In this document: positions 27,554 through 59,800 of the stretch, piece by piece
Position numbering within the stretch: position 1 is the stretch's first letter
How the letters are laid out: the number at the start of each line of letters is the position of its first letter
NCBI GenBank assembly: GCA_963733035.1
Contig: CAVTBU010000004.1
Span: forward strand, 160,001-224,000
DNA length: 64,000 nucleotides
Reading direction: 5' to 3'
Origin: Pirellulales bacterium
Lineage (GTDB): Bacteria; Planctomycetota; Planctomycetia; Pirellulales; PALSA-1355
Translations under genes and position numbers: made by a program
The notes under the pieces: generated by a model
Told to the model about the DNA's origin: nothing
Seen by the model: the letters and a program-made list of their open reading frames with translations, nothing else
Database searches by the model: none

Positions 27554-28111
27554 ATGGGTTTGACATACTTCAAGCGTTTTCGCATGGAGATTGACTTATC
27601 TGGCCGTTTGGTGACGTCGCCGCCGTTACCGACCGGTTATCGGGTCCTGCGGTGGGACGATTCGCTTCTCGAATCGCACGCCGAGGCGAAGTACAACAGC
27701 TTCCGCGGCGAAATCGATTCGAACGTTTTCCCCTGCCTTGGCGACTGGCTGGGTTGCCAGCGGCTGATGCAAGAGATTCGATCCAAGCAGGGCTTCCTGC
27801 CTCAAGCGACGTGGTTGATCGCCCACAATTCAGCCGACGGAAACCAGGAATACTGCGGCACAGTGCAGGGAATTCGCGACTATACGGGAATGGGAGCCAT
27901 TCAAAATCTTGGCGTCACACCTGAACATCGCAGTCGACAATTGGGGTCCTACCTGCTGTTGCGAGCACTCGAGGGATTTCAAGAGGCGGGACTGCGGCGG
28001 GCCTTCCTCGAAGTAACAGCGCAGAATAGTGGGGCGATTCGGCTCTACCATCGACTGGGCTTCGTTAAAGCACGGACCGTTTACAAAGCCGTCGAAGTTG
28101 CGTATTCCTAG
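27554..28111 (+). CDS. GNAT acetyltransferase
   Basis: LGVTPEHRSRQLG motif A, LEVTAQNSGAIRLY.RLGF motif B. Confidence 0.9.
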   Translation: MGLTYFKRFRMEIDLSGRLVTSPPLPTGYRVLRWDDSLLESHAEAKYNSFRGEIDSNVFPCLGDWLGCQRLMQEIRSKQGFLPQATWLIAHNSADGNQEYCGTVQGIRDYTGMGAIQNLGVTPEHRSRQLGSYLLLRALEGFQEAGLRRAFLEVTAQNSGAIRLYHRLGFVKARTVYKAVEVAYS

Positions 28112-32574: not shown

Positions 32575-32649
32575 CGGGGCGTGGCGCAGCCTGGCTAGCG
32601 CGCTTGACTGGGGGTCAAGAGGTCGCAGGTTCAAATCCTGTCGCCCCGA
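32575..32649 (+). tRNA. tRNA-Pro(GGG), CCA not encoded
   Basis: Acceptor CGGGGCG/CGCCCCG, anticodon arm CTTGA-CTGGGGG-TCAAG, T arm GCAGG-TTCAAAT-CCTGT. Confidence 0.97.
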
Positions 32650-32760
32650 CTTGTTGTAACTTCAAGTTTCGTAGTCGGTTGCGAGCGTGACTGGCGACCG
32701 GATTTGAACTTTTCTGCGGCGCCTTAGCGCAACCTTTTGGCGGGAAGACATTTCCGACCT

Positions 32761-32976
32761 GCCAGCAGCTTGACGCCCATGTACATCCCGGGGAAGAGCG
32801 TCAAAAGCAGCTTCTACGGTAGCCATCCGAGCCTCTTGGATCTCGACAACGGCAATCTCAAGATGACCACCGACTTCCGCAGCGTCTACGGCACGATGCT
32901 CCAGGAGTGGATGGGGTTCGACAACAACAAGGCCATTTTGAAGGGCGACTACCCAGCGCTCGGCGTGTTTGGTTGA
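32761..32976 (+). pseudogene. C-terminal fragment of a DUF1501-like gene
   Basis: SVK..FYG.HPSL.DLD.GNLK.TTDFRSVY.T.L.EW.G with no N-terminal part. Confidence 0.65.
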
Positions 32977-33224
32977 ATCGTTGAATGGATCGTGGCCAGC
33001 ACACAACGACACAAGGGAACGAGGCGTCAATGGTCCCAAGCCGCATCTTGCTCGGCGTAGTTCTAGTCGGGGTCGCGCAGGCAATATGCATGGTTGCCAG
33101 CGCGGCAGCGTCGGCCGATGTGGACATGGTCGCAGCCCCGCTCGGCCAGAAGCTCGACGAGCTCATGATTTCGGTAATGCTGTCGCAACGTTTCGAGACA
33201 CAGTCGAATTAATCGGCAGTATCG

Positions 33225-34369
33225 CTACTCGGTCGCTTCCAATTCCACGGCAATCGTCACTTCATGGTCGTTGCGAACGAGCGTCAGCTGGGCGCGCTGG
33301 CCAACTTTGTATTTCTCGAAGGCCAGTAGCAAGTCATGCGTGGCATGGACCGGAGTAGCGTCGATCGCAGTGATGACGTCGCCAAGCACGATTTCCCCCG
33401 CGCGGTGCGGCGGGTTGGTCGCAGTCCTGCTGTCGCGGCTGTGCTACCCCGCTTAACATCCAGAACAAGCACCCCGGGTAGTTCCAGGCGTCGGGCAATC
33501 CGGTCGGAAGCTAGTGTCAACGCCAGGCCCGGCCGGATGATCTTGCCGTGTTCGATTAGCTCGGGAACGACCCACCGCACAGTGTCAACCGGGATTGCAA
33601 AGCCGATTCCTGCATAGGTGCCCGAAGGACTGAAGATGGCCGTGTTCACTCCGATCAATCGGCCAGCGCTGTCCAACAGCGGACCGCCGCTATTGCCGGG
33701 GTTGATCGCGGCGTCGGTTTGGATCACGTCCTTGATGGGCAGTCCCGTCAACGACTTGATCTCGCGTCCGAGGGCGCTGACTACACCGGTCGTTAGCGTA
33801 TGGTCAAGCCCGAATGGGTTGCCAATTGCAAAACATTTGAGGCCGACTTCCAGATCGCTTGACGTTCCCAGCGGCAAAGGGTGCAGAGACTCTGCTGGAG
33901 CATCGATCGACAATACCGCCAGATCTTTCTCTGGCGCAACACCGACCAGCTTTGCTCGATAACTCGTTTGGTCGTTGAATGCTACGGCCGCCGAATCTGC
34001 ATCACGAATCACGTGGAAATTCGTTACAACGTGCCCTGCACGATCCCAAACAAATCCGGTTCCGCTCCCACGCGGAGTCTCGTAGGCATCGAGGGAGAAG
34101 AAGTCTCGCTCAATCGCGTGGGTCGTAATATGAACAACAGAGGGCGAGACGCTCTTGAATAGCACCGTAGTGCCCTTTTCATCTTCCGCGATATCGCCGC
34201 GGGGCACCGGAACCGGTGGGTTGGAACTTTCAGGGGGACGGTCAGGGGATTGCGGCCGGAACACAAACCCAACAGCTACGACCACCAGCAGCGCAGCAAC
34301 GGTCGCTAGCAGGACCGAGTTTAAGATAACGAGTCTTTCGACTCGCCGCGCGTGCTCATCGGTATTCAT
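33225..34369 (-). CDS. HtrA/DegP-like protease with PDZ domain, split by a 1-nt deletion near 33397
   Basis: GSGTGFVW, TNFHV, TDAAINPGNSGGPL; corrected frame gives GEIVLGDVITAID to TAG at 33225. Confidence 0.9.
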
Positions 34370-34473
34370 CACACTCAGATCAGCTGTTGCAAGCGGTGCT
34401 CATGGGGCCCAACGCCCCGCGAAGTGCTGGACGTTGGGCATCCCAAGGCGCCGGCACGAGAAGTGTTTAACAG

Positions 34474-35487
34474 TCAGCGCGTCGCCTCCGACTTCTCACT
34501 GGCAGATGTGCGCGTTTCCCGGTGCTCTCGCGAAAACCAATTCGCCACCTGGTTCCAGAACCCGCGGATCTCCTCAGCCGCTGTGGTTTTCCCGATATTG
34601 GCCTGCAGTTTGGTGATGTCGGCTTCGAGCTTTTTAACTTCGTCATCTTCTCGTTCGCCGACGACGCCGCGGTACAGCACTAACTGGTTCTTCGCCTCTT
34701 GGAGGTTGGCTTTGGCGGCCTCGATGCGCTGCTGCTTGATCATTTGCTCGGCAAGTTGCAGCGCCATTTGTGCCGCGACCAGCGGATTGTCCTGCTTGTT
34801 GACGACGTACGAGATCCCGTCCATTTGAGCAAGCTCCAATTGCTGGCGTGCCTCATCAGAATTGTCCGGCAAGGAATGGAGTGCCTTCATCAGCTTGCCC
34901 TCGACGTAATCCAACTCGAGCAGCACCGATGTGTGCAGTAGATCCGCCTCTGCCAGGCGAACCCCTGTTACGTTTGCCGCATCCCGTTTAGCGTCGGTCA
35001 GTGCCTCCACGACCTTCACCGCGACAAGCCCTTCATGGAGAGGAACCCGGTCATCCTGCACGTGGTCAACATCGCGGTACACCTCGTTCCCCTTGGAGTC
35101 TCGGACGATTGTCGTTACCTCCGTGGTTGGCAACAATTCGCGTATGATCTTCACCAGGCTCAGAGCTTCCTCTAGTTGAGACTTGGCGTCTTCCGGCTGG
35201 TCTTGGTCAATATTCTGAGCGGCTTCACTTAGATGCAAGAGAATGCGCGACGACAGCAGTGATGCCTGCCTGAAATCTTCGGGCGAAAGCAATCCTCCTG
35301 GCTTCTGCTCGACGGTGGTCCGGTACTTCGCACCGCTCCCGGTTGTGATCGTGGTCGGCGTGGCGGCCTTCTGCTCCCCGTCTTTGACTTCGTCGCCCAA
35401 CGCAACGGGGGCTGCAAGCATGAGCGAAGTGGCGACCAGCACACTCACCGTCTTGCATCGATTGCGGGCAAGAATGTTGGTCTTCAT
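34474..35487 (-). CDS. Secreted YfdX-like helical protein
   Basis: Signal peptide, GGAGG SD, helical repeats and NPLVAA..AL.LA segment resembling YfdX. Confidence 0.65.
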   Translation of the reverse strand: MKTNILARNRCKTVSVLVATSLMLAAPVALGDEVKDGEQKAATPTTITTGSGAKYRTTVEQKPGGLLSPEDFRQASLLSSRILLHLSEAAQNIDQDQPEDAKSQLEEALSLVKIIRELLPTTEVTTIVRDSKGNEVYRDVDHVQDDRVPLHEGLVAVKVVEALTDAKRDAANVTGVRLAEADLLHTSVLLELDYVEGKLMKALHSLPDNSDEARQQLELAQMDGISYVVNKQDNPLVAAQMALQLAEQMIKQQRIEAAKANLQEAKNQLVLYRGVVGEREDDEVKKLEADITKLQANIGKTTAAEEIRGFWNQVANWFSREHRETRTSASEKSEATR

Positions 35488-40666: not shown

Positions 40667-43600
40667 ATGGACGAACTGTTGCAGAACTCCGTGCCTCGTG
40701 ACGACGCGCGCAAAGCGGATCACGCTGCCGCTCAGCTGACCTCCTCGATTGATGCTCAAGCAGTGGCTCCAGCGAGTTACTATGTCGTGGGCGTTGGCGC
40801 GTCGGCCGGGGGCCTAGAGGCACTGGAGCAATTTTTCGAACACATTCCGCCGGATTCCGGCATGGCGTTCGTGGTGGTCCAGCACCTTTCGCCCGATTTC
40901 AAGAGCCTAATGGACGAGCTGCTTTCGCGGCACACCGAGCTGGCGATTCATCGGGTTGAAGACGGAATGGCGGTCGAGCCAAATGCCATCTATCTCATTC
41001 CGCCCAAGAAGGAAATGATCATAGCAGGCGGGCGGCTGTTGCTGACCGACAAAGATCCGTCGACCGGCTTGAGCTTGCCGATTGATACGTTCTTTCGTTC
41101 GCTGGCTCAAGATATGGGCCAACGAGCCATCGCTGTCGTTCTCTCCGGCACTGGCAGCGACGGCTCCCGTGGCGTCCGGGCAATCCATGAAGCTGGCGGC
41201 TTGGTGATTGTCCAGAACGAGGAGACGGCCAAGTTTGACGGGATGCCGCGCAGTGCGGTTGAAACGGGAGTCGTCGACCTCATGCTGGCCCCGGCGGCGA
41301 TGTCCAAAGCGCTCCTCAACTATATCCAACACCCGGTGCACGGTCGGAAAGGAGGAGACACGTCGGACAACATCACGTCAGAAACAGACATGAATGCCGT
41401 CTATGGCCTGCTGCGCGGCGAATACGGCATCGACTTTTCTCACTACAAACCGAATACAGTCCTTCGCCGCATCGATCGGCGCCTACAACTGAACCGATCA
41501 GACGATCTGGCGGAATACGTCAAGCAGCTGCGAGCCGATCCGCGCGAATTGAATTCGTTGTACAAGGATCTCCTGATTGGCGTGACACGCTTCTTCCGCG
41601 ACCCAGGCCTATTTGAGCGGCTTGCGCAGGAAGTGATTCCCGACATCCTCGCCAGTGTTCCCGTTGACGATGAGATTCGCGCGTGGGTCGCCGGATGCGC
41701 GACCGGAGAAGAAGCCTATTCGTTGGCGATCTTGATTCATGAGGCGCTTACGGCCGCCGGTCGCCCAGTAAACGTAAAAATCTTTGCCACGGACGTGCAT
41801 CGCGCAAGCCTCGAATTTGCGAGCGCTGGTGTCTACCAGGAGGACGCGCTGACGGAGGTCTCGCGTGAACGCCTCGATCGTAACTTTACCAAGCAGATGT
41901 CGGGATATCAGGTTTCACAAGACCTCCGAAAAATGATCGTTTTCGCGCCGCACAACGTGATCAAAGATGCCCCATTTACGAAGCTAGACCTGATTAGTTG
42001 TCGAAACCTGCTGATCTATCTGCAGCCCCACGCACAAAATAAGGCTCTGTCGCTATTCCACTTCGGCCTTAAGACGCGGGGTGCCTTGGTTCTCGGGCCC
42101 AGCGAGAGCCCGGGGGATATTTCCGACGAGTTCGAAACGCTTGATAGTCATTGGAAAATCTACCACAAACGCCGCGATGTACGCCTGCCGACAGACATGC
42201 GGCTGCCGTTGTCGCCGCTCTTGCCACAGATGCAGGCTGTGAGTGCCGGGCTTCGCACATCAAAGCCGGTTTATCCGGAGCCGAATCTTGTCAAAGCCTA
42301 TGACGAGCTATTGGGAGCGTATGTGCCGCCGAGCTTCCTTGTGAATGCCCAGCGTGAATTGCTCCACACGTTTTCAGGCGCGGGAAGATTTCTGTCGGTT
42401 CCTGATGGCAGGCCATCACAAGACCTGCTGGATATGCTCGACCATGATTTACGGCTGGCCATCTCGGGCGCCCTGCAACGGGCCATGAAAGAAAACGTTG
42501 CCATCGCGTACGGCGGCGTTGCCCGCCAGACGGGCAGTGATGAAAGGCTCAAGGTCTGCGTTCGTCCGCTTCCCATTCGGACATCGGACGATACGTACTT
42601 CCTTATCTCTCTCGAACCGGAAGTCCGGTCACAGCAGCCGGCGCAGTCCGTCAGCCAACTTGACGTCGATGCAGCATCACACAAGCGCGTTGGCGAGTTG
42701 GAAGAAGAGCTTCGTTATACGAAGGAAAACCTGCAAGCAACCGTCGAGGAGATGGAGACGACCAATGAGGAGCTCCAAGCGACCAACGAAGAGCTGGTTG
42801 CGTCGAACGAGGAATTGCAGAGCACCAATGAGGAGCTGCATTCGGTCAACGAAGAACTCTACACGGTCAACGCGGAATACCAGCGAAAGATCACCGAGCT
42901 GACAGAGTTGACCGATGATATGGACAACCTGCTCCGCAGCACGGATGTGGGGACGATCTTCCTGGATCGCGATCTCCTGATCCGCAAATTTACGCCCAAG
43001 ATCGCCCACGCGTTTCAGCTACTGCCCCAGGATGTCGGCCGCCGGATCGACAGCTTTGCGCACAACATCCTTCACGACGGCCTCCTGGACGACGTAAGTC
43101 ATGTGCTAGAGACCGAGGAGCCCTTCGAGCGCGACGTGCAAGACCGATTCGGCCAATGGTTCTTGCTGCGGATTTTGCCCTATCGGTCGAAGGGACGCGT
43201 CGAGGGCGTTGTGGTCACCTTGATTGACATTTCTCGCATCAAGAAGACCGAGGAGGAATTGCGGCGAGTTTCCAAGGTTTTCATGGATGGCGCTGATCCC
43301 ATCATCATCGAGGACATGTCTGGCCGGATCATAGACCTTAACCGCGAGGCCGAACGCGCCTACGGTTGGGCGCGGGCGGAACTGCTGAACAAGAGCATCG
43401 ACGTTCTGGTACCCCCCGAATGCCGGGCGGAAGCGACTGCTCTGCGCGAACAATGCGTTGTCAACGATTCCGTACGGAATGTGGAATCCACGCGCACGGA
43501 TCGGTTCGGCAACTCGAGCCCCGTGTTGCTGACGTTTTCGCTGCTCCACGATGACACGGACCAACCTGCGGGCATCGCGAGCATCGCCAAGGACATTTCT

Positions 43601-44725
43601 GCCCAAAAGAAAGCGGAAGCAGAAGCGCGGGAGGCAGCCAGGCGTCGGGATCAGTTTCTCGCCATGTTGTCGCACGAGCTGCGAAATCCCCTGGGAGCCA
43701 TGCTCAATGCGACCCGACTGTTTAGCCACGCTGGCAATGACGCTGAAGCTCGCCAGCGGGCATGCGCGGCGATCGAGCGCCAGTCGAAGCAAATTGCTCG
43801 CCTGCTGGACGATTTGTTGGATGTCGCGCGGGTCACACAAGGAAGAATCCACATTCGAGAAGAAGTCGTGGACCTGTGCACGCTAGCGCGCGAGGCGATT
43901 CAGGTGATGCAGCCTCAGATCGATGGCTCCCAGCACAAGCTTGTGCTGGACGTTCCAGATCAGCCCATCTACGTCGTGGGCGATTCCGCGAGGTTGCTTC
44001 AAGTCCAAGAGAATCTGTTGGCCAATGCGACGAAGTATACACCTGCTTGTGGCGAGATTTGCGTTTCCATTCGTCAAGAAGATGGCGAAGCAGTGCTGAA
44101 CGTGAAGGACAATGGCGTCGGCATCGACCCCGAGATGCAGGAGAAGATCTTCGATCTCTTCGTTCAAGCGCCGAAAACGCTTGAAAGTGCGGACGCCGGC
44201 ATGGGTATTGGACTGACGATGGTGCAAACGATCGTTAAGCTGCATGGCGGGCGGGTCGTTGTGCGTAGCGAAGGCGTCGGCAAAGGGAGCGAATTTGAGG
44301 TTCGCTTGCCATTGACGGAAAGGCGACCGGTCGAATCTGATACCGGCCTGCCTGCTCAGGCTGACCACCTCCGTGTTTTAATCGTCGAGGACAATTCCGA
44401 CAGCCGCGAATTACTCAAGTCACTGCTACGAATCGATGGCTATGAAGTATCCGCAGCTCCCGACGGCTTGCAAGGCTATGAGGCGATTATTAAGGAGCGG
44501 CCCGATGTCGCACTTGTTGATATCAATCTTCCCGGGATTGATGGATACGAAATCGCCAGAAGAATCAGGGCCGATCAGGCGCATCGGTCGGTTCGCCTCG
44601 TGGCGCTGACAGGATACGGGCGGTCGGTGGACCGCGACGCGGTCTTTGCAGCGGGCTTCGATGAGCACCTTGTGAAGCCTGTTGCTCCGGAGGATCTAGA
44701 GCGCGCGCTACGCAAGCCCCGATAA
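40667..44725 (+). CDS. CheB-CheR-coiled coil-PAS-histidine kinase-REC hybrid
   Basis: GASAGG/QHL/GSDG (CheB), [10 protein letters not shown] and CRNLLIY (CheR), NEELQ repeats, [11 protein letters not shown]. Confidence 0.93.
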
Positions 44726-44898: not shown

Positions 44899-45672
44899 TC
44901 AGGCCGCTGTTGTTTCAGCCACGAACTCGTTGTGGATTGCGTCGACCAATTGCTCTGGATCAACCGGTTTCCGGAACCAGCGGTCAACCCCCTGAGGGCC
45001 GATCGTCACCTCGGCATCGGCCTGCTCAGTTCCCGTTACGGCGAAGATTCTTAGGGACTGATAGTCTGGGTTTTGGCGGATCGCTGAGACGGTCTGCCGG
45101 CCGTCGAATCTGGGCATCTTCATGTCCAGCAAGACGACATCGGGGCGATCGTTTGCGGACAGATGCACCATGGCCTGTAGTCCATCGATTGCCGTGTCGA
45201 CATGAAAGCCGCTGAGACGCAAATAGCCCGCCAGCAGCTCGCTTTCGTTGACGTCGTCTTCCACGAGCAATGCCCGACGCACTTTGCCGCCAGTTGTCGA
45301 GAGAGACGCGTCTGTTGATCCGCAAAACTCCTCCTCGAGCGATTTCAGCTCGTTGAAGATCTTGAAGATCGTCGGCTCAGAGTCGTCTGCTTGACCCGCC
45401 TCCAACATCCGCTGCAATAGCCGTAGACCGAGGGTGGCCTTCTGCAGCCGGTTGCGCACGGAATGTGTGAAGCGGTCGCTCTTGGCCGCCTGGTTTGCGT
45501 CCGCCGCACGGGTAGAGTCGCTGCCGACAAGTTCGTCTCGCAACACGGCGATATCTTTGGGGGCCTCGATGCCCAATCGCACCTTGTTGCCGACTACGCG
45601 CAGAATCTCAACCGTAATTCCAAGGGTGGGGAAAACGACCTTGTCGTTGCGTCCCCGAGAAAGAACAAGCAT
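44899..45672 (-). CDS. CsrA domain fused to a receiver domain
   Basis: MLVLSR...VRLGIEAP..I.VLR.EL then LLVEDD...LLDMKMP...KP; GGAGG SD. Confidence 0.88.
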   Translation of the reverse strand: MLVLSRGRNDKVVFPTLGITVEILRVVGNKVRLGIEAPKDIAVLRDELVGSDSTRAADANQAAKSDRFTHSVRNRLQKATLGLRLLQRMLEAGQADDSEPTIFKIFNELKSLEEEFCGSTDASLSTTGGKVRRALLVEDDVNESELLAGYLRLSGFHVDTAIDGLQAMVHLSANDRPDVVLLDMKMPRFDGRQTVSAIRQNPDYQSLRIFAVTGTEQADAEVTIGPQGVDRWFRKPVDPEQLVDAIHNEFVAETTAA

Positions 45673-46015
45673 GGGTGGGCCTCCATTCCCGCCGAGCCGT
45701 CGGCCGCCACTTGTGGCCTTACTGCAAATCGACGCGCTCTGGTGCGGTGAAGTCGTCTGACACGCCGGCCAAGGCCGCTGATCCAGGTCAGTCGCCGAAT
45801 AAAATGACTTTCGACGCTGTTCCAAGCGGCAGTCGCCAGCCCGACTTCCTTGTCGAGGCATCCACGTGGAGGTCCGTTCCACGCTGACCCGCAGGGTCAG
45901 GATCGATTTTTTTACGTTGCACCTGCGATCTGATCAAGACCGCTTTCCGATGAATCGAGGAGACGCTAGCAAGGCTTTCGGAATCAGCTTTGGCTCCAAA
46001 GCAATCCGTCGAAGG

Positions 46016-47971: not shown

Positions 47972-48039
47972 GCGCGATCTCCTGCTGATTTGCTTACTCT
48001 CCTTTGATGCGTGTCTTGCCACTTGTCCTACGGAGTCCA

Positions 48040-48055
48040 TGCAAAGCTAGTGCCA
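48040..48055 (-). promoter_or_regulatory. Sigma-54 promoter
   Basis: TGGCACTAGCTTTGCA. Confidence 0.75.
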
Positions 48056-48774
48056 TTGCATAATGAAAACTATCGCGAGGCCCCCCGGCACAACAAAGCT
48101 GCCGACACGACTCTTGACGGCGCCAGTTTGATGGTTAGCAACGGTTTGGTAGTGGCCGAAATCTCCACCGCCGCAACGCGCCCAGACATCTCTGCGTCGA
48201 AGCAACGGACTGAGCAGCGAACGACTCAGACAGCCGCGGGGCGGAACACTGCTCGGCCGCCGGAGATTCCGATCTCCCTGTCAAATTGGCGTCTCAATTG
48301 CCACTATTGCCGCCCTGCTGGCGTCAGACTGTCGCACTCTCGCAGTGGAAGAACTCCCAGCAAGCGTTGGCACGCATGTTGTACAAGCGGATTCCGCGCA
48401 ACGGGTTCCAAGACGCGCGCCGCTGGTCGCTTTGTTCGGTGCATGGGATCTATCATGACGACGCGTACGGTGAATCCGAATACCCTCATCGAGGTCATCC
48501 GCGCGTTGCTGCATCGTTTTCGTCCCGCGATCCAACATGGTGTACACAATGAGCGGACAGAGCGATGGTCCCAAAATGGATTCCTCGTCCAAGCAAATGG
48601 CGCGGTTGGCGGCGATCGGCGAACAAGTCGCGTTGGCGGAAAATAAAGGACGACTGGCGTGCCGGGCCACGGCCAAATACCGAGGACCTAGAAGTAGCGG
48701 TGATCAGTCTTGTGGGCGCACAAGTCTTTGGCTGATATGAAGAAGGGATGTCGACCAGCCTCGGACGCCGGCCA

Positions 48775-48809
48775 GAAAAAGTTCTAACCGTGTCCAGTCG
48801 CCCCGATTT
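48775..48809 (+). repeat. att-like site 1 (tRNA-Pro 3' copy)
   Basis: AAAAAGTTCTAACCGTGTCCAGTCGCCCCGA; 15/17 match to 32636-32652. Confidence 0.8.
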
Positions 48810-48824
48810 TGACGAGACAGAAGG

Positions 48825-48855
48825 CCCTTCGGCAAAAATGTCGAAGGGTTTTTTT
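48825..48855 (+). terminator. Intrinsic terminator directly after att site 1
   Basis: CCCTTCGGCA-AAAA-TGTCGAAGGG followed by T7. Confidence 0.75.
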
Positions 48856-49087
48856 CTTTGGTGGGTCGGTAGTTACGTAACGATGACACAGGGTTCAAAT
48901 CGGCCGCTCGGTCAAGTGGGTTTTCTGCGGCTCGCTGATCTAAACCAATAGCCAGTCATCACTTTGTGTGGTTCAAAAACCGGTAGCGTGCGTCGGACCG
49001 GAGCGGGATGTAGTCAGACGCTTGCGAACAAAGGTCACGCCCTCATGTGCATGAACTTGCTTCCGGTTTCCGGCGTGCAGCGACCCT

Positions 49088-49330
49088 CGGTGGTAACCAG
49101 AATGCCTTTGCGCCAGGGAATCTCGGACGATACAGCCATTCTCCAGTAACGGCATCCAAGCACGTGAAGATGCCGCCATCTCATCTGGCAATGTAGACGT
49201 ATCCGTCGTAAAGCAAGGGGATGCCAATACCGGCCCGTTCTGTCGCGTATTCCAAACCAGGCTACTCTTGGCTGAATCACTTCTCGACCATTGATTCCGC
49301 CCAAGTCTCCAGCCCTCTTCGGCAAGAAGT
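49088..49330 (-). pseudogene. Decayed PQQ-like beta-propeller fragment
   Basis: LVWNTRQNGPVLASP / LLYDGYVYIAR*DGGIFTCLDAVTGEWLYRPRFPGAKAFW across a frameshift and a stop. Confidence 0.6.
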
Positions 49331-49455
49331 TCGTTGGTGCATGACTTCGCTGGAACTTTCTCGGCAAGCGACTCAGATTTCTTCCAGCAATCGCACGAAG
49401 TGAGTTACAAATCGGGCCTGCTCCGCGGCTGATCCCGACCGGAACAAAGCGGACG

Positions 49456-51780
49456 CTACCGGCGGCGCTTCTGGGTGGCGACGATGGGACGGCGCTCGAG
49501 TTTGTCGAGAATTTCCATGAACCGAGGTCGGTTGCGGTACTTTTCGCGAATATCTTTGACGAGTTCGATCCAGAAGTCGTCGCGATCGAGCGACTGCATG
49601 ATCGGCCGCATCTTGCGGAGGCAGGTGGCGACGGACTCGTAGGCGCCTTGATTGGCTTGCGGGAGATGCGCTTCGAGCTCAAGGTGGTAAACCTCTAACG
49701 CTCGCTCGGGATGAGACTTGGCCACGGCGGCCGCGACGCGAGAGGCGAGCCCCGCAGCGGAGTTCCAAGCCATCGCTCGGGAGGCACCACCTGACCTCGA
49801 CTTATCGTTGGCGACAATCGTGTCGAACCACCGGAGCGCTTGATCTGGTCTTTTCTCAGCGATAGCGAGGTCGACAAGAACGTCGAGGTACTTCCGCTGG
49901 CGATCATAGGGACTAGGCGGGCGAAGGAAGGCGGCGGCGAGGTAGTCGGGTAGCGGTAACGGCCAGCCGTCTTCGCAGATGAACCGAAGAGTTGGCGACG
50001 TCGAAGGCGCAGCGAACCCCTGCTTCGCGGATCTTGCTCGTTTCTTCTTCAACGCCGACGTTGCCGCTTGGGCAGGCGCGGTCTGGCAACGGATGGGGGC
50101 AATTCCCGTTTCCAGGAACTGTTCGGCGCGGCGGCGCACCGAGGTTCCGCATTTGGCCTTCTCGGCGGCGCCCACCAGATCCTGGAACGACTTGACATTG
50201 GGATTGCGAAAGAACTCGCACGCGGCTCGTGCCGCAACGACGTCCCATTGCTTGCGGCTGCGGGCCAGATCGACAAGCTTATCGGCCAGATGGGAAGCGA
50301 TGCCCGGGAGTTTCTCGTAGGTATGTTCAATCCCCTCCCGGGCCCAGTGCTCGGCGTCGTCGAAACGCTTGAGCTGCATCAAGTGATTGACCAGCCGTTC
50401 GTAACTGCCGGTGCGTCGGACCTCCGCTTCGTAAAGCGGGAGGACCTCGTCGTCTCGGCCCGCCTGTTCGAGGGAGTGAACGAGCCAATCGCTGAGCGAG
50501 TCGCGGCGATAATTGCGGCTCCAACCATCGAGACCATCGCCCACATTCCTGCTGTCTTCAGCGTTCTTATGCTCCTTCGACGAGGGATCGAGTCGGGCGG
50601 CCAGCGTGTCGGCGACCGCGGACCAGTCGGCACTCGACCATCGCGCGTCGAGAATACTTGCGGCCGACTCACCGATGTAATCCCACTGGTCGAGCTCGCA
50701 AGCGTCGATCGCGTAGAGAATCTTCTCGGCCGGCGACAGCGACGAAACAGCGACGGCGGCGAAGACGACGGGGAAGCACTCAGCCAAGGCCATGCCGGTC
50801 TCGCCTTCGTCATGCGACTGACCGACTTGGCTCATGCCACGCTCGAAGAGTTCTCGGCCCAATTCGACGACCGCGTCGGCATGACCGAGTTCGGCAAGGC
50901 GTTCAAAGCGGTGTTTGAGCCGGCTGTAGTCAGGCGTGTGGCCGTCGTGCTGCCAATGGTTCTGCCAGCCAATTTCGGACGTGACTGAGCGGAGCTCCTT
51001 GCGAGCCTCGCCAATCAGCCGGGCAGCGTCCCCTTCGCCGAGGAGGATGCGTTCCTGGAACTCCTGGCGGATCTCGGGAAAGCGATTGACGAGCTCAACT
51101 ACACATTTCGCCAATTCGGCGGCGGACTTCTTCTCAATGTCGGCCTGGATGAGGGCGTCCCATTCGGCGCGCGAACGACGGGGCGTTTTGGCCGTGGAGT
51201 TGGGGCTCTTGGATTTCCCGCCGGGACTACGTGTGCCTCGGCGAGAAGTTCTCATGGATGAGATTCGGGCAGACCGCGACGAGTCTTCATCATCCTCGTC
51301 CCAGTAGTCGTCGGTCTCGTCGTCGTAAAACTGTTCTTCCTCTTCGTACTCGTCAGCCGAGGACTCCGCGAGACGAGCCCAACGGGAATCGTCGGCCGCG
51401 GCCGCGGGGGGCGACTTACCGTCGGCAATTTGAGCAAGATACTCGGCGATCACGGCGACCGCGTGCTTGCACTGACTGCCAACCGGGCAGGTGCAGATTC
51501 CTACGATTTGGCCGCGAGACTTCTTCTTCGCTTCGAGATGCGCCGAAGTGACGTAACGGCGCGTCCCCTGGACTGCCGCAAGCAGCCGACCATCGCTGGA
51601 AACGGCCAAGTTTCTCACTTGGCCGCTCCGCTGGTATGAGCGCCCGCGTTGAACGCTGCGGCTGCCGAAAGCCTGGTCGAGATCGTCCCACGTGAGCTTG
51701 GCCCAGGCGGCTGCATGGGGAATCGCTGCAACGGCGTGTGGCTGGTCCAGGCGTGAAGCGGACGTTTTCTTGCGCGGCAT
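49456..51780 (-). CDS. SWIM zinc-finger protein with helical-repeat C-terminus
   Basis: RGRSY...G.V, CTCPVGSQCKHAVAV, acidic linker, YRNRPRFMEILD. Confidence 0.85.
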   Translation of the reverse strand: MPRKKTSASRLDQPHAVAAIPHAAAWAKLTWDDLDQAFGSRSVQRGRSYQRSGQVRNLAVSSDGRLLAAVQGTRRYVTSAHLEAKKKSRGQIVGICTCPVGSQCKHAVAVIAEYLAQIADGKSPPAAAADDSRWARLAESSADEYEEEEQFYDDETDDYWDEDDEDSSRSARISSMRTSRRGTRSPGGKSKSPNSTAKTPRRSRAEWDALIQADIEKKSAAELAKCVVELVNRFPEIRQEFQERILLGEGDAARLIGEARKELRSVTSEIGWQNHWQHDGHTPDYSRLKHRFERLAELGHADAVVELGRELFERGMSQVGQSHDEGETGMALAECFPVVFAAVAVSSLSPAEKILYAIDACELDQWDYIGESAASILDARWSSADWSAVADTLAARLDPSSKEHKNAEDSRNVGDGLDGWSRNYRRDSLSDWLVHSLEQAGRDDEVLPLYEAEVRRTGSYERLVNHLMQLKRFDDAEHWAREGIEHTYEKLPGIASHLADKLVDLARSRKQWDVVAARAACEFFRNPNVKSFQDLVGAAEKAKCGTSVRRRAEQFLETGIAPIRCQTAPAQAATSALKKKRARSAKQGFAAPSTSPTLRFICEDGWPLPLPDYLAAAFLRPPSPYDRQRKYLDVLVDLAIAEKRPDQALRWFDTIVANDKSRSGGASRAMAWNSAAGLASRVAAAVAKSHPERALEVYHLELEAHLPQANQGAYESVATCLRKMRPIMQSLDRDDFWIELVKDIREKYRNRPRFMEILDKLERRPIVATQKRRR

Positions 51781-52389
51781 GAAGAGTAAGTCTGCGTGAG
51801 TAGCGGGGCTGTTCGAACAGATTATCATAAGGGTGTTTGTGCAGAGCGTCGATCGCCTGGGCGACGACCGGTTGTGCGAAAAATCGCACGACTTACGAGG
51901 CGAGCTATAGTACCTTGGTTGATCCAAGATCCGGCCGACATGCCGTTCCGAAGAGGTGGCAACTGGCGCAGGTAAGGGATGCGGCATTCAAAGTCCTGGC
52001 TCACAAGACAGCAGGTTCTCGAATGGCAACGCCTTCTGCCGCGCGTTTGAGTGCTTCGGTCGGCCGGACCGACCGTTATTCGAGGGCGCTCAATGCCGCG
52101 GCGGGTACATCGTCCGGCCGCACTTCGAAATTGTGGCGCGGCGCAGAGGTGGAAAGCATCGACCGCTGCGAGACGTGTAGTCACCTTTGATGGCGATTAG
52201 CGACCTGGGACGGGCCGCGTTCGTGACCAATGACGGACCGACCTGGGCCAAGAACACGCAAGTATCCGACCTACCTGCTGGCTCACGCCTCTGGTCATCG
52301 CTGCTGGCGGCCAGCCACCGCGTCGGATTCCCCCAGAACTCGTTGTCCGGAATGGATTAAGCTGTTGGGCCATGTCTTGAGGGCATTCG

Positions 52390-52423
52390 AAAAAAGTTCA
52401 ATAGCCGTCCAGTTGCCCCGACT
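52390..52423 (+). repeat. att-like site 2 (tRNA-Pro 3' copy)
   Basis: AAAAAAGTTCAATAGCCGTCCAGTTGCCCCGACT aligns without gaps to att site 1. Confidence 0.75.
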
Positions 52424-52627
52424 AGAGTTACGACAAATACCTATCCGTTGCTAGTTCCACTAACCAGCCTCCGTGTGGCTGATTTCTTCCTCGCGGACTC
52501 TGCGTTGCGCCAAGGGCGTGCATGTCGTCTGGCGCCGTTTGGCGAGTCCGAAGCGCGTTGCACTTGACGACTTAGCGTCTCACGCCGATGGCGCTATCTC
52601 GACGCTGCTGGCCGGTAAAATCCTGTG

Positions 52628-52648
52628 CGCTTGACACTTTGTCAAGCG
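52628..52648. repeat. Perfect 9-bp inverted repeat
   Basis: CGCTTGACA-CTT-TGTCAAGCG. Confidence 0.8.
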
Positions 52649-53012
52649 GTCGCGAGCCTCCGTCGGATTCAGGACTTGGTGGGCACATGATTCAGAATCA
52701 CGTTTCCGGCTGGGGTTAGGAGGGCTGCAAAGGGGCTGGAGCGTTGACGACGAAAAGTGCCAGTAAGCGACGCCGTTCGAAAGTGTCCGCCTACGACCCC
52801 GACCGATCGCGACAGTGGACTTGAAGGGTGAGAGATCATGCGGGAAGCAGGACTTGAAAATACGCTCCCTCTCGGGGACTGGGTCTCCAAGGCCGGTCCA
52901 GCAATGCAAAAGGGCTGGATTCTGCGGGACCGGGGACACCGACTGGCATTCGCTGCCACAATGGTCCAGTATCGGCGCCGCGTGCTCCGTTGCCGGCCGA
53001 GAAACGCGCGGC

Positions 53013-53856: not shown

Positions 53857-56800
53857 TTAAATCAGCGATCGGCGCCGGCGGCTAACTGTGGCCTTGGCGA
53901 TGAGCTCTGTCAGGTCGTCCAGGTCGGCGGCCAGCCACGAGAAAACCGGCTGTAAATCGTTTCGTTTCAGTTGCTGAACGACTAGCGCGAGTTGTGTCGC
54001 GGCTGCTGACGCCTGGTTTGCATTCTTCGGGAGCGCCACGATCGGTTCAGCCACGATTGGTTCAGCCACGATTGGTTCAGCCACGATTGGTTCAGCCACG
54101 ATTGGTTCAGCCACGATTGGTTCAGCCACGATCGGTTCAGCCACGATCGGTTCAGCCACGATCGGTTGAGCCACGACCGGCGGATCGGGCGCCGGCGGGC
54201 TGGCCGGGATGGCGCTCGCTGAAGAAGCGGGGGACAGGGAGGAGAACCCAGTGTGAGTTCGCACGATGGCCAGGTCCGCGGCGTCGGTGCGCCCGTCACC
54301 GTTGAAATCAGCTTCAGCCCAGTTTGGACTACCGAACACCTGACCGATGTGCTTTCGCGTCTCCGCTAGATCGGCGGCATCCACGAGTCCGTCGAGGTTC
54401 GCGTCGCCATACTCCGTGTTCAGGATCGTATGGATTAAATAATCAATGTCGGCCTGGTTCACGATGCCATCATGATTCAGATCGGCACTCGGGTCGCCGG
54501 ATTGAACAAGTCCCCAGATCGAATTGATGTCGCTGGCATTGACCATGCCGTCGCCGTCAAAATCGCCAGGAACGTGCACTACTTCCGGTGCACCGACGGA
54601 CCACAGTTGGCGGGAGAAATTGCCGTACCGATCCGGCAACGCCACGCTGGCCGCCGAGAAATAGAACCGGTCACCAACGATCAGGCCGCCGCTTGGATCA
54701 GGATTAGCATAGGCGTTGCCAACCTTAGACGGCACGAGTGAGGGTGCTGCGTCTCCGGCCTTGAAGCGCCACAGGCCGGCTTGTCCAGGCAGACCGTTGG
54801 AAGCTGAGAAGTAGAGGAACTCACCCGCGGCAACGAGCGCTCCAGGTCGCTGCTCGTAGTTGTCTGGACCCGTGAAGTCGTGAACCAGCGATAGTTCGCC
54901 GCCAGCGGGGTCGAACTTCCAGAGCTGTGAGATAACCGTACTTTCCGTGACTTCGGACGGATAGAACTGATAGAAGAAATAGACGCTACGGTCGAAGACA
55001 GTCTGATTGTCGACTTGGGCTTGGCCAACCATGAAGCTGCTGACCGCCGAGGTACCGGCGGCCGTGCCATCGGACGTCCAGAACTGGGTGCTGTATTGGC
55101 CCGTTTCGCTGTCGTAGGTCGTGACGCTGAAGCTGATCTGATTGTCGGTCACGGGGATCGACTGAGCCGGATAGTAACCGGTGCCGACGCTGGCCCCTGC
55201 GCTGAAGGTTGCCAAGGACTCAAACTGCGGATCTGCCGCGGAGAGTGCAGCGCTATTGATGGCGCGGAGCTCGATAGGTTGGTTCCAGTCCGATTGGGCG
55301 AGGGTGAACAGGTTTTGTGACCCGTCCTCGGCTGGCGCAACCGTGAAGTCGTTGAAGCTTGACGCCGAACCGATCACGTGGAACTGGTCGCTTTGCAGGT
55401 CGTGCCAGACGGCGGACCGATTCGAGTCTCCGTCGACGGTGGCTTGGTAGACTAACCCACCGCCGAAGGCGCGAATACTTGCGATTGAATTGAGACCAGC
55501 GGTGCTGAGCCAACCAATCTGGGGCGTGCCCGTGCTGAAATCGACGTGCACGACGCCGGCATTGAAATTCGAGTCGTACGCGATGAAGTACAACGAGTCG
55601 CCAAGGACGACGGGGGCTTCCGAGTTGTTATAGTACACTGGGCCTTCTGCGATCACCCGCGCTCCGGCCTGATCGGCAAACCAGGCGCGAGAGTAGTTGT
55701 CGAAGAAGACGACGCCGCGTCCCGGAATCGCCCACACTTGCTGCGGATAGTCGATCGTCGCGTAGACAGGATCGATGCTCTCAACTACACGGGTTTGGCC
55801 ATTTTCCAAAACCCAGAGCTGCTGGGCGATGAAATAGATCGACGCAGCCCCGTTCGGAGACGAGGGATAGGTGACCGAAGTGAGCTGGGCGGGATAAAGC
55901 CCCGCCATCGGATCGAGGACTCCCTCCAGGATCGGAGTGCCGGCGGGCGTGTTGGCATTCAGGTCGTCGAGCGAGATCGGTGGCAAGACAGTCCAATCGA
56001 TGGTCGCGTCGACCGACCGTCCGGCCGTCACGTCGGTGACGGTGACAGTCACCAGGTAGGGAGAATTCGTCGCTCCGGCATCGATGGTACCGGTAATCGC
56101 CCCCAACTGATCGATCGAAATGCCCGGCGGCAAATTGGTCGCCTGCACCGAGATCTGATGGCCCAGTGGGTTACTCACGTACACATTGAAATTGACACTC
56201 GTTCCCGCATAGCTGGTTACGGGCGAGGACACCGACACGGAGACAGCAGGGGAGATGGTCCACAGAACCGTTTGGGTGGCCGTGTAGTTGATGGTTTGAT
56301 CGAAACCCGTGAGATGCACTTCGTAGGGCTGATCGCTAAATGCGGAGTCATCAATCGTGCCGATGATGTGCCCTTGCGAATCGATTGACAGCCCCGTCGG
56401 AAGGCCGGTGGCCGCGACGGTGATGGTGTGATTGTAGGGATTGGTTAGCAGCGGCAAGTCGACGGTCTGGCCGGCGTAGCTGTGAGGCAACGTGGAGGAG
56501 AGCTGAAAACCCTGCTGTAGCTTCCAGGTAAAGGTAACCGTTTTGTACTGCCCGGTTGCGTCGTTGTAGGCGAAGATGGTTGGGTTGAAAGTCGCGTTTG
56601 GTCCGTACACCTGGATATAGAAATAGATCGAACCGCTGATCAAACCCGTCTGCGAGTTAATGCTCAGGTAGGACGGCAACCCGTTGGCGACAAACCGCAG
56701 CGGAATATTCGTGGGATTGTCGACCTGGATCTGCAGGTTGATTGGCACGCCTTCGGGAGTGAATTGGTTCCCGGGGTTCACAATGGACCACAGGTCTTGC

Positions 56801-59800
56801 ACGGTCCAGGTGAACGCCACGTTCTGGCTGCCGGTGCTATCGCTGACTGTGACGTTCACGTTGAAGTTGGTGCCAGGCGCGATCGAACCGCTGGGCGTGC
56901 CAGAGATGATTCCCGTACTGGGGTCGATCGTGAGGCCCGTCGGCAGCCCCGCGGCGGAATAGGCTTTGGGGGACAGCCCGCCGGTCGCGACAATTTGCAG
57001 CGGCGTGATCGGTTGGCCAATGCGAGCGAGTTGAGTACCGGGATTCTCCACTGCCAAGGGCATCACGACATCAACAAACTCAATGTTCGAGGCCAAGCCG
57101 CCGACGAGCGGCAGGATGCCGGCATCAAGATCGATGGTCTCGGAACCGTTGAGGACCGAGATGTAGTGGACTGTGTCCGTGCCATCCCCGCCGTCGAGAT
57201 TTCCTGCCAGTTGGCCGTTCGTGCGGAAATAGAAGTCGTCGTTTGCGGTTCCTCCGGTCAAATTTCGTATTCCGGAGAACGTGAGTGTCGAGTTCACGGT
57301 TCCACCACCTGTGGAAGTGATTTCCCAGATCGTGGGCGAGTTAGGTCCTACCAGCGCGCTACCGCCGCTGCCGCCCATGACAGATAGTAGAGCGCGCGTT
57401 CCGTTGACCTGAATGCTCGCCGGGGCGAGGCCACTCACGGTCCAATCGGCTGGCGAGGTTTGCCCCAACACGACATTGCGGGCGCTTGCGTTAGCCGAGT
57501 CATTGAGTTGAACGGGGACATTCGGCAGTGCCGCATCATGAACGTTGACCGTGACACTACCAAAAATCGACTGCATGTTTCCGGCATCGCCAATCACGAT
57601 GGGCGCCTGGCCGTCGTACTCGATCGAAAGCGGCTGGGTGGTTCCGCGCACGTCGACCATACGGTTGCCGGGATTGATGCCGGTTGTATGAGCGACCGTG
57701 TCGACGACATGGATGGGGTAGTTTTGCGGGTCAACACCCCAATCCTGATTCAGGCCGTACAGGGTGAGGTTCGTGGTGTTACCCTGGAAGGTGACCAGCT
57801 TCGTCTTGGAAGTTGAAAAGCCCTTCCAGATATAGCCTTGTCCACCACCGGCATTGTCCACATTCATTTCTTCAGCATAGAAGCTGAAATCGGCGATCAG
57901 TTCCGTGATCTCATTCGGGCGGTCCGGGCTCGGGTTTACATAGATCGACGAGCCCTGCACGTTGCTGAGATTTTGGGGCCAGTTGAGAGTCACTTGCTGG
58001 GCGCCAAAAATCGACATGCCATTGCTCAGGCTGCCACCGCCGCTGGGCGCGGTGTTATCCAGGATTTGCACGGTCGTGCCTTCGCCGGCCATCAGCACCA
58101 TGTCTTTCGGCGCCTGATTGATCTGATAGTGGCTTGCCGGACTTCCAAGGATCGTCAGCGAAGCATCCATCGACGCGCTGACATAAAACCTCGCGGGTGC
58201 CAGACCCTCCCAATTGTCCGCCGTGTCCGTCGCGTCGCCCCCCAGCCGTATGTCGCGCGCGACATCCAGGTGATTGTCGAACGTCGTACCACCGGGCACG
58301 ATGTAGGAGAACGAGGCGAAATAGACATTGCCTTGGATCGCCTGTAAGGTGCCGTTACCAATATGAACTGACGCGGCGCGGAACTCGCGCCGGTTCAAAT
58401 CGCTCAGTTGAAGCGACTTCGGGGACACCACTGTGGCGGAAAACGCCAGAGCACCGTCGTGCCTTGGATGTCGACCGTCCCGATCGGGACGTTATCCACC
58501 GTCGTGAAATGGGTCGTGACGCCGGGGGGCGTGTCGACGATGGTCAGCGAGCTTGCGCCATTGCGCGGCAAACCAATGTCCAGTCCGGGCCCCGCGTTGC
58601 TGAAGTTGGTGTAAACCAGGTCGGCTAATTGATCGAAATGGACGGTCGCGCCCGTCAGCCCAGTGAGTGTGCTTGCTGTGAGCACAACATCGTTTGGCGC
58701 CGCGGGCAGTGGGCTCGTCGAAGTGTCAGGCACGATCCACATCGCCGCGTTTTGCACGTACACGTCGGCCAAAATCGTGTTGCGAAGATCGTTCGCCGAA
58801 AACTGGCTGGGAAGCAACTGGACGAGCGTGTGGTTACCGCGACCCGTGATGTATACCGGCCCATTTGCAGACGAGATCTGAATGTTGTCGACAATCTCGT
58901 ATTGAGCCGGCGGCGTCGTGGCAAAGTAATGAAGCGTAGCCGTCGTCGTGTTGTCGACGAACAGGCTGGCACGCTGGGCACCGGAGATTTGCAGGTCGGT
59001 GTTCGGCGAATACACTAGCTTGTTATACGTATTGCTTCCAAACGCGAAGCCCAACTCTCCCTTGCCTGGGTAGGCTGCGTCGGGCTGAACCCGAAGATTC
59101 GGTCCGAAGGCCACGTACGACGAGACGTCGTAAACAAGTGTGCCGAGTCCCTGGCCAGTGAAGTTGTAGGTAATAGTTTGGAGATCAGTATTCGAGAAGG
59201 TGTTGGTTGTATTTGTGAACGGGCTGATGTCCGTGAGCAGGTCGACGCTGCCATCGAGATTCAAGCGGCGGCCGACGTACAACTCGAAGTTGCCATTGAC
59301 ACTCAGCGTCTGGTTCACGCGTTTCCCCGCGACGTAAACCGTCGGAGTTACGGCTGGCTCGGCCACGCTCTCGGCCACAGGCTCTTCGTCGGCCACGATC
59401 GCCATGCTCATGGCTAGCGGCGCGGGTGGTCCGTTATTGACAATCGAGACGGCCGTGGCACCGGCCGGCGTGTTCAGAATCGAGAACGAATCCGCCGCGC
59501 CGCCATAGATTGTGAGCGTACCGAACAGCGTGCCGAGCGTAGCCGCGGCCGTCGCTCCCGGAGCTCCCGTTCCCCAGCCACTGAACGACGAGCCGTCGAG
59601 CTGCAGGATTTGAGAATCGGTTCCGTTTCGTCCGTCGAGCGTAACCTCTGCCAGATTCACGGCGACGTTGCCATTGATGTTCGACAGGTCTCCGCCACCC
59701 ACATTCACGTAGACGCGCGGATCCGTGATCGCGGCATACACCGCGCCAAACTGATTCTTCAGATAGAGGGGTGTATTGGAATCCTGCTTCAAGGGATTCA

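Follow-up and report, generated by a model that had tools for sequence, protein, structure and literature searches.

The 64,000-nucleotide (nt) stretch of DNA analysed here, referred to as the window, is positions 160001-224000 of contig C4 of a Pirellulales bacterium (genome G000, 6.6 Mb). It contains two short minus-strand reading frames that begin at displaced copies of the end of its only tRNA gene, tRNA-Pro(GGG). These frames, called tails below, match the C-termini of large serine recombinases (LSRs), and the two sites are very probably relics of integrative elements that inserted at tRNA-Pro. Coordinates without a contig name refer to the window. The features concerned are:

32575..32650, plus strand: tRNA-Pro(GGG), the target gene and sole tRNA of the window (ARAGORN)
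32636..32649, minus strand: 14-nt core inside the tRNA gene, TCGGGGCGACAGGA, followed directly by TTTGAAC (B-type arm)
32650..32715, minus strand: flank X, about 65 conserved nt just downstream of the tRNA, with no recombinase end
48704..48805, minus strand: tail 1, orphaned last 33 codons and stop of an LSR gene and P arm of the element's attachment site (attP), by homology to LSR C-termini
48793..48806, minus strand: core copy of site 1, TCGGGGCGACTGGA, with one mismatch to the tRNA core in 14 positions
48806..48865, minus strand: remnant of a family-B LSR, 20 decayed codons (...RKPFDVLAEGLxxxxS) fused in frame to tail 1
49456..51987, minus strand: cargo between the sites, an 843-amino-acid (aa) SWIM-like protein (Pfam PF04434, E = 0.0095, below the curated cut-off)
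52295..52420, minus strand: tail 2, orphaned last 41 codons and stop of an LSR gene, and P arm
52408..52421, minus strand: core copy of site 2, TCGGGGCAACTGGA
52422..52620, minus strand: flank Y, adjoining site 2 on its B' side and sharing homology with the DNA beside a displaced tRNA-Pro 3' half (C4:265760)

Start-less reading frames at copies of a tRNA core

Tail 1 (48805-48704) reads RGDWTRLELFLAGVRGWSTSLLHISQRLVRPQD and tail 2 (52420-52295) reads RGNWTAIELFSNALKTWPNSLIHSGQRVLGESDAVAGRQQR. A preliminary description of this DNA had reported both frames and an ungapped identity of 14/33 residues, and both translate as claimed. The tails find one another in tblastn with E = 1.8e-5 when the search space is the whole genome. 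Neither has an ATG, GTG or TTG start upstream in its frame, and at site 2 there are in-frame stops 13 and 16 codons upstream. The 14-nt core TCGGGGCGACAGGA at which they begin is the antisense 3' end of tRNA-Pro and holds a small palindrome, GTCG-GGG-CGAC. Its displaced copies (48806-48793 and 52421-52408) are direct repeats in the same orientation as the full tRNA gene, and the antisense tRNA, read in the frame of the tails, gives ...TTSRGDRI*, again as described earlier.

With either tail as tblastn query, the own genome yields six copies, each starting at RG: the two window sites (C4:208805 and C4:212420), C4:250373, C6:952880, C6:955437 and C6:961144. A profile made from these finds exactly six copies at E <= 5e-9, the next match having E = 0.35 (nhmmer, own genome). 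The similarity of the tails exceeds chance. A sequence-only model built from the six copies (model R1) has matches at E <= 0.01 in 41 of the 61 related genomes, G000 counted, and in 27 of the 42 that are at least 90% complete, with clustered multiple copies in many of them.

A survey of 30 loci, the best of about 130 matches listed, covers 31 copies. The similarity starts at the identical nucleotide in all 31, while the left flanks mostly differ. Read in frame, the consensus is R(G/S)D.T..ELF..G...W, and most stops fall around codons 30-34. Upstream, the frame stays open for 155 codons at the longest, and an open reading frame (ORF) long enough for a recombinase precedes none of the 31, which pointed to coding sequence lacking its gene. 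No integrase was detected by Pfam near the copies (48 ORFs around the six own copies, and a further set of 56 ORFs).

Large serine recombinases in long and short form

A profile of 22 tails was run against longer proteins, giving 59 matches at E <= 0.01 among 8000 candidates scored. Four of the matched proteins (P0039, P0052, P0054 and P0055) are 684-719 aa long and have Pfam Resolvase and/or Recombinase domains, and the tail forms their last 30-32 residues, following ...SLGNV(N/S). These are named family A. The proposal that the tail is a serine recombinase C-terminus is thus borne out by full-length LSRs, whose long forms end ...LGNVN-RGDRTAIELF.... The fragments of a second family, B (P0008 and others), end ...TLVPTMRKPFDVLAEGLISKNS-RGDKTAIELF.... 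Full-length family-B relatives carry Resolvase, Recombinase and Zn_ribbon_recom, the canonical LSR domain set, and end ...RKPFDVLAEGLxxxxS ahead of the same RGD. The classes of tail are shuffled among family A, family B and a third LSR family (P0040, P0044), and many metagenomic proteins show near-identical classes after flanks that are unrelated. Tail 2 has close relatives in L007 (78% aa identity) and P0001 (80%). Ends of the form ...ALAA or ...ALAT, which resemble ssrA-type tags, occur in only some tails (L018, L014, L061, P0055) and in neither window tail.

Upstream of site 1, residues 206-245 of P0008 match C4:208865-208743 (window 48865-48743) at 54% identity (tblastn, E = 1.9e-6), so that what had been taken for a terminator hairpin is in fact decayed coding sequence for KPFDVLAEGL. 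As a separate observation, these family-B codons form a DNA palindrome (AAGCCCTTCG...CGAAGGGCTT; window 48820-48850, minus strand, and L079:2045-2080), which on the tRNA-sense strand reads as a hairpin with a T-run behind it, immediately past the tRNA. The element may therefore bring a terminator for the tRNA that it invades.

The tail profile retrieved nothing meaningful from Pfam or PDB sequences. AlphaFold2, run on P0054 with a 5-row alignment, gave a mean predicted local distance difference test score (pLDDT) of 58.8. In this model the tail is a helix (653-676) that follows an unstructured linker; its pLDDT is below 50, and it was not used as evidence.

Family A occurs in 6 of the 61 genomes (E <= 1e-10, query P0054), and family B or its fragments in 27 (E <= 1e-8, query P0008). 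It is in these relatives that the shorter form of the gene is seen. In G057 a 659-aa ORF ends ...SLRNVNRGDRI*, its last codons overlapping an opposite-strand tRNA-Pro(GGG), and in G039 a family-A gene ends ...GNVNRGERI* within tRNA-Pro(TGG). Scanning one genome per species gave 19 family-A loci. Seven have a tRNA-Pro at the gene end, four have a model-R1 tail there, and a fifth (L067) has a diverged long tail. Long-tailed full-length forms are L059, L061, L066, L067 and L073, together with the four family-A proteins above. For family B, 16 loci were retrieved, the gene ending at tRNA-Pro in eight, at tRNA-Ala(GGC) in two and at no called tRNA in six, of which L079, L085 and L089 still end RG[DE][MR]I*. 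The two at tRNA-Ala(GGC), L081 and L083 (G006:C117, G059:C134), are close family-B relatives ending ...LAEGL....SGG, and represent a switch of target tRNA within the family.

After removal of duplicate loci there are 16 distinct LSR-tRNA-Pro junctions, eight of family A (L046=L060, L047, L062, L064, L065, L070, L074, L077) and eight of family B (L078, L080, L082, L087, L090, L091, L092, L093). In all of them the 3' end of the LSR gene overlaps an antisense tRNA-Pro (GGG, CGG or TGG). Most stop as RG[DE]xI*, as the preliminary description had predicted for recombinase ORFs abutting tRNA-Pro, while L065, L074 and L093 are without that TGA and read on into the tRNA. The short form retains every Pfam domain. 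L052 (G057:C1, about 620.5 kb, RGDRI*) and L079 (G003:C4, about 293.3 kb, RGDMI*) adjoin only the 3' half of a tRNA-Pro, cut at the anticodon loop. In both, the tRNA half and the serine-type element seem to have been moved together by a later insertion of the tyrosine type.

The tail had also been expected at the far end of the island from the recombinase, and three genomes have such pairs on one contig. In G001:C6, which is from the same genus, a tail lies at about 14494 and an LSR (33210-34799) ends RGDRI* in tRNA-Pro(GGG), 20.3 kb apart. Between them are a reverse transcriptase, a tyrosine recombinase, a type I restriction system, a Schlafen-like protein and a ParA-like ATPase. No synteny was found between this region and the window locus. 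In G055:C1 a family-B remnant runs into a tRNA-Pro(TGG) (21350-21425), and the tail is 6.2 kb away at 27654. Three tails (209418, 214841 and 227312) lie on G003:C4, where a 508-aa LSR ends RGDMI* at 293.3 kb with a partial tRNA-Pro alongside. The expectation did not hold in G057, where no far-end tail was found upstream of the intact LSR by model search, 25-nt pattern or 14-nt core pattern. One candidate there (5531525) reads as ordinary coding sequence and carries no tail. In five metagenome genomes the tail matches are on contigs that could not be linked to the recombinase contigs.

Recombinase ends and tails have CGG GGC GAC in one and the same frame. Circularisation, or any recombination in the core, would therefore give an in-frame long protein of the kind found in the databases, in line with the predicted in-frame fusion.

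The arms of the sites were also compared, using right-hand arms only. After the core the tails continue with CGGCTATTGAAC or CACGGTTAGAAC, and the tRNA with TTTGAAC. The TTGAAC/TAGAAC motif starts at nt 20 from CGG in 49 of 55 distinct tails and at nt 19 in one (five are unmatched by the regular expression). In the 16 tRNA-type junctions it starts at nt 15 (13 by regular expression, three TTCGAAC variants by eye). The motif is thus 5 bp farther from the core in tails than in the tRNA. For LI integrase, Rutherford et al. 2013 (PMC3783163) describe a zinc-ribbon-domain motif that is shifted 5 bp toward the centre in attB, the chromosomal attachment site, relative to attP. The 5-bp offset seen here is this known attP/attB signature of serine integrases.

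The ratio of non-synonymous to synonymous substitution rates (dN/dS) was determined for codons 11-28, a stretch outside any plausible 25-bp half-site, in a sample of 51 tails with an open frame. Pairs at 62-97% nucleotide identity were used, the corresponding proportions (pN/pS) over all pairs being saturated (pS about 0.69) and uninformative. In the peptide frame dN/dS is 0.51 (57 pairs) or 0.44 (14 disjoint pairs), below 1 as had been anticipated. The other five frames range from 0.66 to 1.69 (shifted sense 0.91 and 1.38; antisense 1.06, 0.66 and 1.69). This is an indication, and not a formal test, of frame-specific purifying selection on the tail, because the pairs are interrelated. Conservation of the first ten codons extends to all three codon positions (entropy 0.43, 0.28 and 0.65), which fits a DNA site overlapping the code.

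Probable integration at tRNA-Pro and competing explanations

On the basis of these observations, we consider it very probable that both window sites are attR-type junctions, left by integrative elements whose LSR gene spans its own attP at tRNA-Pro. The order at such a junction would be chromosomal flank, 14-nt core and the P arm of the element. The LSR gene would run antisense to the tRNA, the 3' end of which supplies the core. In the free, circular element the gene would read ...S-RGD(R/K)T(A/P)(I/L)ELF..G...W... for some 30-40 further codons. On integration the body of the gene would stay at the tRNA, closed in most cases by two antisense-tRNA codons and TGA (RGDRI*), and the last 30-40 codons, now without a start, would be orphaned at the element's opposite end. 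At the level of sequence, a long form and a tRNA-terminated short form do exist, and the difference between them maps exactly to the predicted integration junction. The earlier proposal of an attP inside the recombinase gene, with a long free and a short integrated protein, is therefore upheld in its structure by the relatives; its other part, a recombinase in the own genome, is not, and the two window peptides are not genes.

Several points weigh against this reading. The window tRNA abuts flank X and not a recombinase end, and the attL partners of both window sites are missing. No LSR of either family is left in the own genome and none lies near the six copies. Three of the six, those on C6, are near no tRNA-Pro, the only candidate being a degenerate tRNA-like fragment at C6:951365. 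G057, the only complete genome with an intact LSR at tRNA-Pro, yielded no far-end tail. The recombinase-side (left) half-sites show, by eye, no clear mirror image of the right arm. The constraint on the tail is only moderate (dN/dS about 0.5, from pairs related to one another). Finally, tandem arrays of tails exist (L059; G003, G009, G012), and these are not explained by the textbook rule that an LSR recombines attP with attB only.

The same repeats could have been read in other ways. They contain GAACTTTT-N~11-TC, and two of the C6 copies are about 170 nt upstream of genes for extracytoplasmic function (ECF) sigma factors, which would suit a non-coding promoter or leader for such a factor (-35 GAAC, -10 TC..). 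The idea was dropped because full-length recombinases (684-719 aa) terminate, in frame, with this very sequence. In addition, 51 of 55 copies keep the frame open over 25 codons or more, this frame has the lowest dN/dS, the downstream genes vary between copies, and the spacing is 13-15 nt, against 16-17 nt for -35 GGAAC / -10 (C)GTC/TC... (The distance from AAC to TC is 15 nt, which we take to be about 3 nt shorter than in sigma-E type promoters.) We regard this explanation as barely credible. An RNA element was also considered and rejected, with no Rfam match at E <= 10 in 48000-53000 and four base pairs from RNAalifold, none of them covarying. Somewhat less implausible, though still very improbable, is that the tails are ordinary pseudogene stumps whose break at RGD is accidental and unrelated to recombination at a tRNA. 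Site 1 and C4:250373 do retain decayed recombinase codons upstream, and there is no active recombinase here. An accidental break would not begin at the same nucleotide behind unrelated flanks in 31 of 31 copies (30 loci), nor coincide with the 14-nt tRNA-Pro core, nor fall exactly where 16 intact or near-intact LSR genes end in the tRNA, and it leaves aside flank Y, which is joined to the tRNA at one place and to a tail at another.

It might also be that a tyrosine integrase uses the core and that the LSR gene is merely adjacent. The array to which the window belongs does have classical 44-nt repeats of the tRNA-Pro 3' half (C4:247556, 265760 and 277155), and a tyrosine integrase gene lies just outside the tail of G001:C6. 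These repeats and the tails break about 30 nt apart and are thus two junction types, the 5-bp motif offset is an LSR hallmark, and in each instance it is an LSR ORF that runs across the core in frame, all of which makes this a highly unlikely account. Quite a different matter is whether the swap of the C-terminus has any consequence. The attP may simply overlap the gene end, both forms behaving alike and the tail being kept for folding or DNA binding. This we consider a serious possibility, falling a little short of an even chance. Shuffling of the tail classes among families A, B and the third (P0040, P0044) implies that tails are unmatched to their enzymes. The first ten codons coincide with a DNA half-site and are conserved at all codon positions, the constraint beyond codon 10 is moderate, and the short form has all its Pfam domains. 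The frame-specific purifying selection on codons 11-28, past the 25-bp half-site, and the recurrence of near-identical tail classes behind unrelated flanks point the other way.

On this reading, a singly integrated element could make only the short form, and the long form could be made only by a free element or by one lying behind another in an array such as L059. The long form would presumably be made before integration and the short form be available for excision. Since the two forms are tied to the state of the element, the tail could separate the integrating from the excising enzyme, or alter stability. A tentative and rather doubtful extension is that the tail is a built-in direction switch, the long form integrating and the short form being competent for excision or differently stable, so that direction would be set by the state of the gene itself and not by a separate recombination directionality factor (RDF). 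The frame-specific constraint and the near-identical classes behind many flanks speak in favour of a function for the tail. Against a finely matched function are the shuffling of classes among families and the retention of all recognised domains in the short form. As the module moves between unrelated LSR families through the shared tRNA-Pro core, any action would be expected to be generic, for example that of a tethered helix or a degradation signal.

Genome engineering makes wide use of serine integrases, and their one-way behaviour is thought to need a separate directionality factor. Here a natural group appears to target a tRNA gene, to carry attP in its own gene, and to exist in two forms tied to the state of the element. 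The long and short proteins and all four att sites can be read from sequence, which opens self-encoded directionality to bench testing. The group is widespread in Planctomycetes, with defence, resistance and regulatory cargo between the repeats.

Composite island array and relation to known systems

No family-A or family-B LSR is present in G000 at E <= 1e-10 (P0054) or 1e-8 (P0008), only the 20-codon family-B remnant, and nothing is therefore demonstrably active here. The tRNA of the window is now adjoined not by a recombinase gene but by flank X, which has an in-frame stop 24 codons upstream. In alignments the same flank is found beside the displaced tRNA-Pro 3' half at C4:247556 and beside a tRNA-Pro(CGG) of G001, and three tail sites of other genomes have it on their left. 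Nor is there a recombinase between the two window sites, the ORF there being the SWIM-like protein. The two sites had been taken as the arms of a single element. They are instead junctions of the same kind (core followed by P arm) in the same orientation, and stem from different integration events.

The relation of flank Y to the flank at C4:265760 is informative. Mean column identity is 87% over the alignment, in which the aligner opens a 5-nt gap before TTGAAC. The homology extends through the core and ends there, site 2 continuing into the tail and C4:265760 into the tRNA. One flank is therefore joined to a P arm here and to a B arm there.

The 44-nt direct repeats of the tRNA-Pro(GGG) 3' half outside the window (C4:247556, 265760, 277155) have their break at the anticodon loop, as is usual for islands made by tyrosine integrases. 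In the tails the break is about 30 nt farther 3', so that two junction types are present. A further 3'-half repeat lies at C4:281680 and an inverted fragment at C4:229462; the repeats from 247556 to 281680 correspond to window coordinates of about 87.6 to 121.7 kb. No Resolvase or Phage_integrase (PF00589) match was found in C4:192-282 kb, so there is no tyrosine integrase in the island. tRNA-Pro(GGG) thus carries a composite island array of about 89 kb with no integrase left, built by two kinds of integration at one tRNA, and for annotation of the window this means that everything from 32650 to its end belongs to that array. Tails 1 and 2 are relics of the attR type, as is the tail at C4:250373; the matching attL junctions of all three have been lost by displacement or deletion. 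That the window sites are relics follows from the loss of the recombinase genes and the displacement of the partner junctions by later insertions at the same tRNA. Decayed recombinase codons are still retained upstream of window site 1 and of C4:250373.

In its full tRNA gene and displaced 3' repeats of the same orientation the array resembles the tRNA islands catalogued by Islander, and it differs in having no tyrosine integrase (PF00589) in C4:192-282 kb. The integrases of phiC31, Bxb1 and A118/LI share with the present enzymes Resolvase, Recombinase and Zn_ribbon_recom, a short core and the 5-bp attB shift. In the phages phiC31, Bxb1 and A118, attP is outside int, a separate RDF protein sets the direction, and the targets are protein-coding genes. 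Here, in contrast to the canonical large serine integrases, attP is inside the recombinase gene and the target is tRNA-Pro. In the integration-dependent immunity of mycobacteriophages, integration within the 3' end of a gene also changes a C-terminus; there the gene is that of the repressor, the integrase is of the tyrosine type and an ssrA-like degradation tag is removed. In the present system the gene crossed is that of the recombinase, and LAA-like ends occur in only some tails.

The gene of SSV-type archaeal integrases is split into two large parts, compared with about 30 codons trimmed here. The closest precedent is IntP/IntX of Myxococcus phage Mx8, where attP is inside the 3' coding end of the integrase gene, integration alters the C-terminus, and the target is a tRNA gene. 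PMC6070905 places the Mx8 attP inside int and describes how integration replaces the 3' end of the gene, leaving a protein that is active but altered in its behaviour. Mx8 has a tyrosine recombinase, whereas the enzyme here is an LSR (Pfam Resolvase/Recombinase, not Phage_integrase) with a short core and no arm-type sites, and one tail module is common to several recombinase families. The 2014 Islander paper (PMC4383910) names Mx8 and SSV as integrase genes that cross attP, with a tRNA gene as the target of the SSV type, and describes serine-family integrases as not known to target tRNA genes. The SSV-type enzymes are also tyrosine recombinases. A full-text literature search with incomplete coverage retrieved no paper describing a serine integrase that targets a tRNA or whose own gene contains attP.

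Some further features of these regions may be recorded. Within flank X, about 45 nt from the tRNA end and in inverted orientation to it, the T-arm and acceptor sequence of the tRNA recurs in sense orientation (GTTCAAATCCGGTCGCCAGTC). Directly after flank X is a 65-codon ORF (32779-32973, plus strand) ending ...TTDFRSVYGTML..., which looked like the C-terminal end of a DUF1501-type protein, an assignment for which Pfam gave no match. An ORF with a CsrA domain and a response-regulator receiver domain (44899-45882, minus strand) adjoins a 1352-aa CheB-CheR-PAS-histidine kinase-receiver hybrid (40667-44725). Beyond site 2, a 1524-aa protein with He_PIG and dockerin domains is encoded at 53857-58431 on the minus strand, and a 15-nt tandem repeat of about 10 copies (54005-54206) encodes (PIVAE)n near its C-terminus. 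The DNA between tails in relatives (L034-L045, L094-L095) is rich in defence and resistance cargo, including Cas3 with GSU0053/GSU0054 proteins, type I restriction, Schlafen/AlbA_2, TOTE primase-helicase and SNF2 helicases, and also MerR/MerT/mercuric reductase-like genes, an AcrB efflux pump and ECF sigma-kinase pairs. Elsewhere in the own genome, C6:241456-268483 has about 44 tRNA genes in 27 kb, a dense array of the kind seen in large phages and mobile elements.

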